Below, in pieces: positions 3,255-5,262 of a stretch of DNA of 32,000 bases (the stretch's first letter is position 1; each line of letters opens with the position of its first letter). The stretch lies in the NCBI GenBank assembly GCA_048882505.1, contig JBHLRO010000029.1:3714-35713 (forward strand), in the 5' to 3' direction. The stretch is from Candidatus Thorarchaeota archaeon (GTDB lineage Archaea; Asgardarchaeota; Heimdallarchaeia; Hodarchaeales; Hodarchaeaceae). Position numbers and translations under genes: made by a program. Under the pieces are notes generated by a model, which saw only the letters and a program-made list of their open reading frames with translations, ran no database searches and was not told the origin of the DNA.

Positions 3255-4049
3255 CTAGAATCCACTTACTATGGCGTCTGCGAGTTTATCAATATACTGT
3301 GTGAACGGATGATCAGGATACTTAAGGGAAAAGATCGTTCGTGATCCCTCACGAGCTACTTCACAATAACATGGGATACTGGTAATTACTCGCATTCTCA
3401 TCTCAGATTCGATAGTGGCTTGAAACTCATTCACCAATTTTAGGTCCGTTTCGCTCCAAACACCATGTTCAGGCGGACAGGTTTCGGCCACAACACGGTT
3501 CAGTACCACGTAATTTTTGGCATCAAGTAACGAGTAAAGTTGGGTTACCATACTCTTTGTTCCGCTGATATCAAAATCATCGGCCTTTAAAACGAGACAT
3601 GTGGCATCGGAGATGACCAACCCATCAATACTCTCCATTTGTACCCCTGGACTTGTGTCAATTATTGTATAGTCAAATCCAGACTCAGTTAGCTCGTCTC
3701 TGAGCCGGAGAATGCGTTTCAAGGACCTTTGTCGTTGTTTCTTGTCCGCTCGCACGATTTCTCCCATTTTACGAAAGTCCGTGGATGCAAAAGCTGCGTA
3801 TAATGGAATCTTGTACTCCTCTTCGAACGACTTCAAAATGTCCTCGCCTGTTAGATCAGGGTCAAAGAGTAAGTCATTGATCGTGACATCTGTGTCAATT
3901 CCGCATAGGGTCTGAAGATTGGGCCCTCGGAAATCAAGATCCAAGATACATGTCTTGTGCCCCTGGCGAGCAAGAATAGTTGCTAAGTTGGCACTTAGAT
4001 GGGTTTTTCCTGTTCCCCCTTTATAGCTGTGGAAAGCAATAATCTTCAT
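3255..4049 (-). CDS. MinD/ParA-family Walker-A ATPase
   Basis: Deviant Walker A KGGTGKT, LDLDFRGPNL, switch IIDTSPG, VVLNRV; AGGTGTGA RBS; no obvious C-terminal amphipathic membrane-targeting tail. Confidence 0.92.
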   Translation of the reverse strand: MKIIAFHSYKGGTGKTHLSANLATILARQGHKTCILDLDFRGPNLQTLCGIDTDVTINDLLFDPDLTGEDILKSFEEEYKIPLYAAFASTDFRKMGEIVRADKKQRQRSLKRILRLRDELTESGFDYTIIDTSPGVQMESIDGLVISDATCLVLKADDFDISGTKSMVTQLYSLLDAKNYVVLNRVVAETCPPEHGVWSETDLKLVNEFQATIESEMRMRVITSIPCYCEVAREGSRTIFSLKYPDHPFTQYIDKLADAIVSGF

Positions 4050-4093
4050 TAATCACACCTTAATCGAATTCTAATCCTTAATGTGGGCAAAAA

Positions 4094-4774
4094 TTAAATT
4101 TCCTCTTCATCTGATATCCTGATTGCCATCCGCGTTTTTTTCATGGCATGATTTAAATCATCATCAGAACCGTTGCCATTTTCTCTAGATCCCTCTCCGG
4201 AATAGAAAAGCACTTTCTTTCCCTCTCTCATTTTAGAAATTAGTCCTTTATCAGTAAGTTGGTTGAGATAATCGGATTCGGTCGGCCTTGATTTACCCGT
4301 TCTAGCGGCGACCTCTTGCGCTGTTACACCGCGTTCAGCCTTCATAACAGTCCCGTAGGTACCTCGTAAGTGACGGGGTACCTGCATTAGTATATCCAAT
4401 CCTGTTGATATCTTCGAGGAATTGGTAGACGATCCGGGCGTCTTGAGCGACACTTTCTCAATCATCCGACGGTTCACTTTGGCCATATGTTTTATTTCTC
4501 TAATGTCTGCGAAGATTCCTTTGATCTCCCCATGAATTCCCGTAATTAATACCTCGATTGACGTGCGGGTCTGCTGTAACGCGTTATTAACCTCCTCACG
4601 TACCTCTTGTAACTCTTTCTTGAGAGCATTATATAATTCATCAGGAATGGGTTTGTCTTTTCGATCCGCGTTTGTTCCATCCGGGGAATCCATAAACCCA
4701 AAACCTAAATCATCTGGAGAGTATTCAACCTTATTTATTTTCCTTAAGGAAAATCGATCTCCAAATTTCGGCAC
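4094..4774 (-). CDS. Coiled-coil + C-terminal winged-helix DNA-binding protein
   Basis: Heptad-rich LYNALKKELQEVREEVNNALQQ segment, Ser/Thr linker, then VTAQEVAARTGKSRPTESDYLNQLTDKGLISKMREGKKVLFY (HTH + wing); GTG start. Confidence 0.8.
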   Translation of the reverse strand: MPKFGDRFSLRKINKVEYSPDDLGFGFMDSPDGTNADRKDKPIPDELYNALKKELQEVREEVNNALQQTRTSIEVLITGIHGEIKGIFADIREIKHMAKVNRRMIEKVSLKTPGSSTNSSKISTGLDILMQVPRHLRGTYGTVMKAERGVTAQEVAARTGKSRPTESDYLNQLTDKGLISKMREGKKVLFYSGEGSRENGNGSDDDLNHAMKKTRMAIRISDEEEI

Positions 4775-4880
4775 TTATGACACCACGAAAATTCCAACCG
4801 ATAAAATAAAAGTTTTAAATCGGCGAACATCTAGAGCCGCCCTTATTTACCCAGTACTATCCGTAAACGAGACTGTTTCG

Positions 4881-5144
4881 CTAGTTCAGGGCGTAATAAT
4901 GAGACCGTAGATCTCGAAGGTCGGGTACTCTTCGTACGAGGGCATCTTCGATCAAAATCTTTAAGGCGTATCTAATTGTTCGGTTACTTAACGTGGTGTG
5001 ATTACCGATTTCTTGTGGCTTAAGGGCGCCATTTACTTTTAAAAGGTAGTACACTTCCCGTGCAGATTTGGGAAGATGCGTAATCCGAGTATCATCATCA
5101 TCAAGTAGTTGATTTCCGAGCTCATCTCTTGAATCAATCGCCAT
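4881..5144 (-). CDS. Small winged-helix (MarR/ArsR-like) DNA-binding protein
   Basis: LPKSAREVYYLLKVNGALKPQEIGNHTTLSNRTIRYALKILIEDALVRRVPDLRDLRSHYY matches the compact archaeal wHTH pattern; GGAG RBS. Confidence 0.85.
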   Translation of the reverse strand: MAIDSRDELGNQLLDDDDTRITHLPKSAREVYYLLKVNGALKPQEIGNHTTLSNRTIRYALKILIEDALVRRVPDLRDLRSHYYALN

Positions 5145-5262
5145 ACCGATTTCTCCGAGTATGTTGAATTGTTGATGATTTGATGATAGGGATTTAAAAA
5201 CCTTCCTCTTATCTTATTTCTCACCGAATACTCCGATCTATGGCAATTATCTTGTTGATGAT
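5145..5262. repeat. Two imperfect ~35-40 bp direct repeats flanking the TATA box of the wHTH gene
   Basis: ACCGATTTCTCCGA (5145-5158) vs ACCGAATACTCCGA (5223-5236); exact TTGTTGATGAT at 5169-5179 and 5252-5262; an additional tandem TTGATGAT at 5180-5187. Confidence 0.6.
5190..5206 (-). promoter_or_regulatory. Putative BRE/TATA promoter of the wHTH gene
   Basis: Minus strand GGAAGG-TTTTTAAAT about 50 nt upstream of the ATG at 5144. Confidence 0.5.

Follow-up and report, generated by a model that had tools for sequence, protein, structure and literature searches.

A three-gene ATPase and winged-helix cassette of Hodarchaeales as a candidate DNA-tethered switch

What does a cassette that joins a ParA/MinD-type ATPase to two winged helix-turn-helix (wHTH) proteins do on an archaeal chromosome? 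The question is raised by a 32,000-nucleotide stretch of contig JBHLRO010000029.1 (positions 3,714 to 35,713; GenBank assembly GCA_048882505.1), called the window below, in which a first-pass annotation read the genes around positions 3255-5262 as a candidate undescribed archaeal partition or positioning system, possibly of an Asgard host. The host is indeed an Asgard archaeon, of the order Hodarchaeales. The reading that we prefer, tentatively and at slightly less than even confidence, is that the three genes form a single module, passed on vertically with the chromosome, and encode an autoregulated ATPase switch of the MinD/FlhG type that would be tethered to DNA through a coiled-coil partner. 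A housekeeping regulatory or positioning role on DNA is favoured over chromosome partition or defence.

The ATPase and its coiled-coil partner

As annotated, the list of open reading frames holds three co-oriented genes on the minus strand that together span 3255-5144. They encode an 87-amino-acid wHTH protein (wHTH87), a 226-amino-acid coiled-coil-wHTH protein that begins with GTG (4094-4774; the partner, or adaptor) and a 264-amino-acid KGGTGKT ATPase (3255-4049). The 44-bp gap claimed between the last two genes is also there (4050-4093, minus strand), with an AGGTG ribosome-binding site 7 nt 5' of the ATPase ATG. Since this spacer has such a site and neither a promoter-like nor a terminator-like site was found in it, the adaptor and ATPase genes are probably co-transcribed as one transcript. 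A scan for sigma-70 promoters and terminators stayed at chance level.

The ATPase scores above the Pfam thresholds of AAA_31, ParA and CbiA and carries the marks of the ParA/MinD (SIMIBI) class: the deviant Walker A motif KGGxGK[ST] with its signature lysine (KGGTGKT, residues 10-16, nt 4002-4022, minus strand), a DxD switch (DLDF, residues 37-40, with DLD at 37-39) and a Walker B aspartate (IIDTSPG, residues 128-134). These catalytic motifs are invariant in the 21 ATPases that we aligned and the 78 that we scanned, all 78 of which share SYKGGTGKT, DxDFR[AG]P[SN] and DTSPG. In a fold model with a predicted local distance difference test (pLDDT) value of 86.7, the closest folds found by Foldseek are FlhG, archaeal MinD, FleN and MinD, followed by Soj; among the nearest solved structures are those of FlhG/FleN (4rz3, E 8e-15, template modelling score 0.74; also 5j1j and 8p53). 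No curated NCBIfam family is reached. The protein stays below the cut-offs of the MinD models TIGR01968 and TIGR01969 (58.4 bits vs 201.75, the archaeal MinD score, and 47.1 vs 212.9), of the ParA partition family NF041546 (50.4 vs 180) and of the KGGVGR-variant family NF047398, its top NCBIfam score (62.2 vs 90). The annotation had seen no membrane-targeting tail on this protein. In the model, the amphipathic last helix (residues 248-263; pLDDT about 90) belongs to the fold and would match the final helix of MinD-type structures, and no separate tail of this kind is evident. The locus has no gene other than these three and so offers no candidate for MinC or MinE, the rest of the genome not having been searched for either.

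The partner has Pfam matches to wHTH domains of the TrmB, IclR and MarR types at residues 140-190. An AlphaFold2 model built on an alignment of 19 orthologues shows residues 1-44 disordered, then a 66-residue helix (residues 45-110, nt 4445-4642, minus strand), a disordered linker, the wHTH domain (residues 125-192, nt 4199-4402, minus strand) and a disordered acidic tail (residues 195-226). At the level of a model, this is the layout that had been read from the translation (N-terminal peptide, coiled coil, linker, wHTH, acidic tail). The disordered N-tail is lysine-rich in every orthologue. In the wHTH core 19 columns are invariant, and six of them (L126, D127, P133, H135, L136 and T139) fall within residues 122-145 (STGLDILMQVPRHLRGTYGTVMKA; nt 4340-4411, minus strand), which form helices 1 and 2 of the domain and contain the invariant family motif GLDxL..PxHLRxT. 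The recognition helix (residues 163-175; KSRxxESDYLNQL) is also invariant in the genus.

A complex of ATPase, partner (residues 28-226) and ATP, with two copies of each, was modelled from our own alignments. The complex scored 0.61, compared with 0.00 for the best of three controls, a result with the verdict 'supports binding'; the mark of 0.61 is reached by 58 of 80 solved complexes and by two of 110 mismatched pairs, counts that are only a rough guide for a complex folded from own alignments with ligand present. At least 75% of the contacts are shared between runs, and the pLDDT of the partner is at least 64. The ATPase-wHTH binding on which the annotation's proposal turned is thereby predicted for the 226-amino-acid partner. 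Contacts involve residues 96-118, 138-145 and 171-176 of the ATPase and residues 122-145 of the partner, while the recognition helix and the wing of the partner lie outside the confident interface. The stretch corresponding to residues 122-145 aligns with the partners of Bathyarchaeia and with longin-type partners, both described below. Neither sequence nor fold searches found a solved ParA/MinD-type ATPase bound to a wHTH partner.

With this in mind, one may propose how the pair would work. The partner would probably dimerise through its 66-residue helix and so present two wHTH heads. In the predicted complex, helices 1 and 2 of each head (GLDxL..PxHLRxT) would fit a hydrophobic groove lined by ATPase helices 103-122 (a basic helix), 138-145 and 161-175, which may leave the recognition helix and the wing available to DNA. 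From what is known of the family, ATP-driven sandwich dimerisation of the ATPase and subsequent hydrolysis would cycle the association of the partner with DNA or with itself. MinD binds its partners at the helix after Walker B, and the docking site predicted here includes that helix. Like McdA-McdB, MinD-MinE and ParA-ParB, the pair joins a deviant-Walker-A ATPase to a coiled-coil protein with a charged, disordered N-tail; unlike them, it is predicted to make contact through a folded wHTH domain instead of a short peptide.

Some features of the two genes stand apart from this docking scheme. The first 27 partner codons (4691-4774; MPKFGDRFSLRKINK...) occur only in the subclade of this species, in frame and with indels of 3n, and the alternative start Met28 (ATG at 4691-4693) coincides with the N-terminus of more distant orthologues. 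In the orthologue at locus L002, one gene caller placed the start at the internal Met. In the ATPase, the signature IPCYC (CxC at residues 227-229, nt 3363-3371, minus strand) stands in place of the IPxD-type loop of MinD, and nearly all of the 78 ATPases of the clade, from Hodarchaeales to Bathyarchaeia, have [IV]PC[FYM]C here. CxC or CxxC sites are known in CooC, Get3 and Mrp, and by analogy the motif may be a metal or redox site.

The small winged-helix protein and its iterons

The first gene of the cassette, wHTH87 (4881-5144, minus strand), encodes a winged-helix protein whose Pfam matches (MarR/HTH) fall below threshold. Across its 15 aligned orthologues the N-terminus is acidic and varies, whereas the core, LPKSA..NGALKP.EIG...LS[NH]RT[IV]RY.L.IL...R[VI]PDL.DLR.H.Y, is invariant, as is the recognition helix LS[NH]RT[IV]RY within it. 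Orthologues (E 1e-27 or better) are confined to cassette-bearing genomes, where they always lie directly upstream of the other two genes; paralogues number 2-6 per genome.

In all 14 species compared at orthologous loci, a 9-bp iteron, TGTTGATGA, occurs in either orientation upstream of wHTH87. Each wHTH87 promoter has two to five copies at 10-11-bp spacing directly after a TATA-like box, and within 150 bp upstream of the gene iterons number 24.3 per kb, compared with 0.70 per kb in the rest of the 14 loci. Iteron arrays were found neither in G023, a genome of the same order that has adaptor and ATPase without wHTH87, nor in 72 loci without wHTH87 from Bathyarchaeia and other lineages outside the order. 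Because iterons and wHTH87 co-occur and the recognition helix is invariant, we assign the iterons to wHTH87, a candidate iteron binder and autoregulator on this sequence evidence.

In the window, a proximal pair (TTGTTGATGA-TTTGATGAT on the plus strand) lies at 5169-5187, about 25-45 nt before the wHTH87 ATG. Read on the gene strand, it is ATCATCAAATCATCAACAA at 5187-5169, 4 nt 3' of a TATA-like TTTTTAAAT (5192-5200, minus strand), which keeps the same position in orthologous promoters and is the putative box of the wHTH87 promoter. A distal copy (TTGTTGATGAT on the plus strand, 5252-5262; ATCATCAACAA at 5262-5252 on the gene strand) is found 83 bp from the proximal one. A repeat search of the window alone returned two-copy short repeats only, and the 9-mer with one mismatch is not enriched in the 32 kb (11 matches vs 9.8 expected); the case for the iterons therefore rests on the comparison between species. 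The adaptor gene probably has a second promoter, marked by a TATA-like ATTTAAAAC (4812-4820, minus strand) 38-46 nt before its GTG. Seven of the 14 species carry an iteron before the adaptor gene (-25 to -46 relative to its start), while the adaptor promoter in the subclade of this species has none; this is the same subclade that carries the 27 extra codons, and its upstream spacer is short (about 110 nt).

Elsewhere in the 4.3-Mb genome (G000) there are just two other strict TGTTGATGA arrays, with three to four copies at an exact 11-bp period. Both lie between a CTTTATAAGG box and a start codon, and both are conserved in a second genome, G016. One precedes the gene of a 215-amino-acid signal-peptide protein (C1:174613-175260; array C1:174560-174600) and the other that of a 151-amino-acid protein (C3:11519-11974; array C3:11453-11483). 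In G016 the two orthologues are adjacent, each with its own array (C6:522-550 and 1322-1350). Between G000 and G016, genomes that are otherwise 90-99% identical, the two proteins share only 47% and 60% identity. They were found as iteron targets in these two genomes alone, and no genus-wide regulon follows from them; a genus-wide search for strict three-copy arrays gave few, and the two-copy pattern did no better than a reversed control.

According to the scheme that we propose on the basis of this co-occurrence, wHTH87 would bind the phased TGTTGATGA iterons over the region from TATA box to start codon of its own promoter. In most species it would also cover the adaptor-ATPase promoter, and in this species pair two unlinked promoters. 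It would thus act as an autoregulator or local repressor.

Further repeats and promoter elements were seen around these loci. About 190 bp upstream of the array on C1 there is an additional iteron site with two copies, the whole region being C1:174369-174600. For the 151-amino-acid protein, a longin fold is suggested by Atlas leads; homology to the longin domain of the fused partners is not supported by BLASTP (E 0.11) or hhalign (probability 7.5%). At locus L129 (G004 C130:14107-14300), three copies of TTTCCACACCACATGACAAAAA come immediately after four perfect TTTGTTGATGA repeats, close to the end of the contig. In the Bathyarchaeia loci L057-L127 a nearly invariant promoter element, TTTCGTAAGACTTAATAAA, lies about 60-90 nt upstream of the partner gene. 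This element, which is followed near the start by TGTACAC(G/A)TGNAAAACA, is far better conserved than the flanking intergenic DNA.

Spread of the module in Archaea

The three genes stand in the same order in 16 of the 22 genomes of the genus (15 besides that of the window, counting G014, whose contig ends inside the cassette) and in metagenome contigs. The synteny check that the first-pass annotation had called for thus gives a conserved order and strict co-occurrence of the three genes. The cassette occupies a fixed chromosomal position adjoining FtsX/ABC transporter genes, its GC content is that of its surroundings, and its neighbours are transporters and metabolic genes. Across the genus, identity to the window is 81-92% for the ATPase, 79-89% for the neighbouring ABC ATPase, 56-94% for wHTH87, 56-60% for FtsX and 33-72% for the partner, the fastest-evolving gene of the locus. 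One relative has an inserted VapB/VapC (PIN) pair (L001:4848-5524) that separates the ATPase gene from those of the ABC transporter. The distance from the cassette to every orc1/cdc6 gene is at least 440 kb in four single-contig genomes. In three complete Bathyarchaeia chromosomes (G302, G303 and G304; loci L102, L084 and L106), the best-scoring orc1/cdc6 gene is found roughly opposite the cassette, at a distance of 46-52% of the chromosome, and the second one at about 20-23%; these genomes are related, and the arrangement may be plain synteny.

Beyond the genus, the constant element is the pair of ATPase and partner. In G023 an ATPase 62% identical to ours follows a 146-amino-acid coiled-coil-wHTH protein, with no small wHTH gene. 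In another Asgard family the ATPases show 33-39% identity, and the protein encoded next combines, in about 203 amino acids, a longin-like domain (a weak Fuz_longin_1 match) with a wHTH. In Bathyarchaeia the ATPase genes (35-40% protein identity) lie behind a gene for a coiled-coil-wHTH protein of 120-170 amino acids, which they usually overlap by 4 bp, and a conserved 97-amino-acid HTH_45 protein is often encoded ahead of that gene in turn; the ATPase occurs in 100 of 251 sampled genomes (about 40%), nearly always in single copy. The partner wHTH of Hodarchaeales aligns by hhalign with that of Bathyarchaeia at 99.5% probability (E 2.6e-23) and with that of the longin type at 94% (E 1.2e-7), and its core is 42% identical to the Bathyarchaeia partners. 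A profile search of 1.84 billion representatives returned 854 partner clusters (50% identity) at E ≤0.001, of which 421 at E ≤1e-10; most of these proteins have 100-160 amino acids, and a few have 330-480 with a C-terminal wHTH. The core is a two-gene pair, of an ATPase and a partner ending in one particular wHTH, that is widespread in Archaea.

The genome itself encodes two further pairs of a MinD-like ATPase (KGGVGKT, 26-30% identical) and a longin-like-wHTH protein, at C3:64683-66220 and C13:3263-4740, whose partners have the same LPxxLR-type wHTH, making a total of three paralogous ATPase/X-wHTH pairs. At C22:50199-51772, an Mrp/NBP35-type ATPase with a CPNC motif is followed by a 151-amino-acid protein whose N-terminus resembles that of the longin-like partners. 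In a quick maximum-likelihood tree, the ATPases of the cassette form a clade apart from the genome's own paralogues (Shimodaira-Hasegawa-like approximate likelihood-ratio test 100), with lineage-specific subclades on long stems. The congruence of these clades with archaeal lineages points to a module that was inherited vertically on the chromosome.

A switch on DNA, a partition machine or a defence system

The core architecture has been described before. Li, Burroughs and Aravind (bioRxiv 10.64898/2026.10.19.760177, October 2026) defined, by purely computational means and mainly in archaea, 'ParA-wHTH systems' in which a ParA lies beside one or more 'rapidly evolving' wHTHs fused to an elongated N-terminal helix, with variants that carry V4R or profilin/longin-like domains, and predicted a role in immunity. 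The cassette probably belongs to these systems, and the 'undescribed' of the first-pass annotation no longer fully applies. The partner has the same architecture (helix 45-110, then wHTH 125-192), the adjacency of ParA and wHTH is conserved in Hodarchaeales, Bathyarchaeia and elsewhere, and longin-type variants on the same wHTH occur in sister lineages (family codes f11 and f28) and in the two further pairs of this genome. The putative counterpart of the 'PG motif' that the preprint places past sensor-1 reads DxDFR[AG]P[SN] here. The second 'conflict' clade of ParA ATPases in the preprint, ConB2, to which the preprint assigns these systems, is marked by a Lys-to-Arg change in Walker A, the KGGVGR variant of NF047398, whereas all 78 members of the clade described here retain KGGTGKT and the clade is set apart by an IPC[FY]C signature of its own. 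The whole partner evolves fast (33-44% identity), but its wHTH core retains the 19 invariant columns. Iterons are present here and go unmentioned in the preprint, and our evidence from synteny, strong conservation and the lack of a defence context speaks more against immunity than for it.

For the DNA-tethered ATPase switch that we prefer, FleN-FleQ and ParA-ParB serve as working analogies. As in FleN/FlhG-FleQ, a MinD-type ATPase is paired with a DNA-binding protein; identity is low (about 20%), a coiled-coil wHTH protein takes the place of the AAA+ enhancer-binding protein, and the cassette has no flagellar or archaellar context. Several points weigh against this preference. The score of the predicted complex is the model's own confidence, to which the memory of solved MinD/ParA complexes may contribute. 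The assignment of the iterons to wHTH87 is drawn from co-occurrence, and the recognition helix of the adaptor is invariant as well. The cassette can be dispensed with: it was not recovered from G009, a single-contig assembly from the genus with 96% completeness, and only about 40% of the sampled Bathyarchaeia have it. That the two additional iteron-controlled genes evolve very fast would also be in keeping with a conflict system. In the literature we found no experimental study of the ATPase-partner pair or of any other member, and the sole published reading of the architecture is immunity.

The possibility closest to the original proposal is a partition or positioning machine, in which a wHTH87 polymer on the iterons would serve as the centromere and the coiled-coil protein would bridge it to an ATPase that moves or spaces DNA. 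In the partition system of the Sulfolobus plasmid pNOB8, a small wHTH DNA binder, an adaptor and a Walker-type ATPase are likewise combined, with a DNA site upstream of the first gene. The likeness to pNOB8 aspA-parB-parA that the annotation had drawn holds for the order of the genes (small DNA binder, adaptor, ATPase; DNA site upstream), and so does its suggestion of non-homologous components, as neither wHTH87 nor the adaptor has detectable homology to pNOB8 AspA or ParB or to any solved partner. Searches of PDB sequences with wHTH87 and the adaptor profile (E up to 1) returned no partition protein, be it AspA, ParB or SegB-like; SegA and SegB structures are present in the PDB, and their chains are absent from the matches of the ATPase (E up to 0.001) and of the partners. 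The repeats also fit, being phased at 10-11 bp and direct, as in plasmid centromeres that double as operators. ParR-parC of R1 and TubR-tubC of pBtoxis have direct-repeat arrays of this period upstream of the operon, together with a small binder (a wHTH in TubR), and the arrays of three to five direct repeats found here resemble them in position and period. The predicted docking of the ATPase, its very strong conservation and the lysine-rich tail of the partner, which is reminiscent of known ATPase-activating peptides, are likewise what such a machine would need.

The same comparisons bring out the differences. pNOB8 AspA-ParB-ParA is encoded on a plasmid and the present cassette on a chromosome; the sites of the latter are phased direct repeats laid over promoters, and the fold of its ATPase is nearest to MinD/FlhG and not to ParA/Soj. 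Compared with parC and tubC, the arrays are short, chromosomal and also found before unlinked genes, and the motor is a Walker ATPase and not ParM or TubZ. All iteron arrays, including those of the two unlinked genes, lie between a TATA box and a start codon, as operators do, and the core pair is found without iterons in G023 and Bathyarchaeia. The annotation had set its proposal against wHTH proteins that are ordinary regulators of unlinked genes, and that alternative holds in part, given the iterons at two unlinked promoters. No sign of chromosome segregation was seen: the marks of a chromosomal partition system, a place near the replication origin and broad retention, do not show in a cassette that lies far from orc1/cdc6, was not found in G009 and occurs in 100 of 251 Bathyarchaeia genomes. 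We therefore consider partition or positioning by such a machine unlikely. The same low probability attaches to its fullest version, a Hodarchaeales machine of non-homologous parts in which a wHTH filament on 11-bp TGTTGATGA iterons would be the centromere, the coiled-coil wHTH protein the adaptor and the CxC MinD-like ATPase the motor, with the same docking logic reused with longin-type partners in other Asgard lineages.

Somewhat less likely still, in our view, is an anti-mobile-element system, in which the wHTH partner would recognise invading DNA and the ATPase would coat or sequester it. This is in line with the immunity prediction for the same architecture (bioRxiv 10.64898/2026.10.19.760177), and one may add the fast evolution of the adaptor and of the extra iteron-controlled genes, the patchy presence of the cassette within the genus and in Bathyarchaeia, and the VapBC pair that adjoins it in one relative. 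Yet neither an effector gene nor a defence island was found at the locus, and PADLOC returned only generic wHTH or Csa3-type matches there, with no specific defence family. Only one copy of the cassette is present, with fixed synteny next to an ABC transporter; its ATPase is as conserved as the neighbouring ABC ATPase, and the ATPase clades track lineages on long stems. The wHTH core that would have to recognise the invader is conserved in its invariant columns and as far as the Bathyarchaeia partners, and the Lys-to-Arg hallmark of ConB2 is absent from every member of the clade.

That the cassette is two units, with wHTH87 an ordinary local transcription factor beside an independent ATPase-partner module, is very improbable: the core pair does occur without wHTH87 in G023 and behind a different small wHTH (HTH_45) in Bathyarchaeia, and wHTH87 has several paralogues, appears to control unlinked genes and probably has its own promoter, but its orthologues occur in exactly the cassette-bearing genomes, always directly upstream, and half of the species have an iteron before the adaptor gene.

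The core ParA-wHTH architecture is thus already known from computational work (bioRxiv 10.64898/2026.10.19.760177). Our analysis adds a third component and its iterons, a predicted docking motif, the definition of the clade by KGGTGKT and CxC, and evidence for vertical inheritance. The published prediction of immunity and the housekeeping reading favoured here are in direct disagreement. Bacteria rely on ParA/MinD ATPases to arrange DNA, division sites and organelles; for archaea the systems studied so far are few and, to our knowledge, none is from an Asgard archaeon. Cultured Hodarchaeales exist (bioRxiv 10.1101/2025.02.26.640444). With a 9-bp iteron, a 24-residue docking motif and a distinctive ATPase clade, the module is conserved and specific enough to be put to the test. 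Longin-type domains regulate GTPases in eukaryotes, of which Hodarchaeales are the cultured closest relatives, and domains of this type are used by the paralogues of the module.

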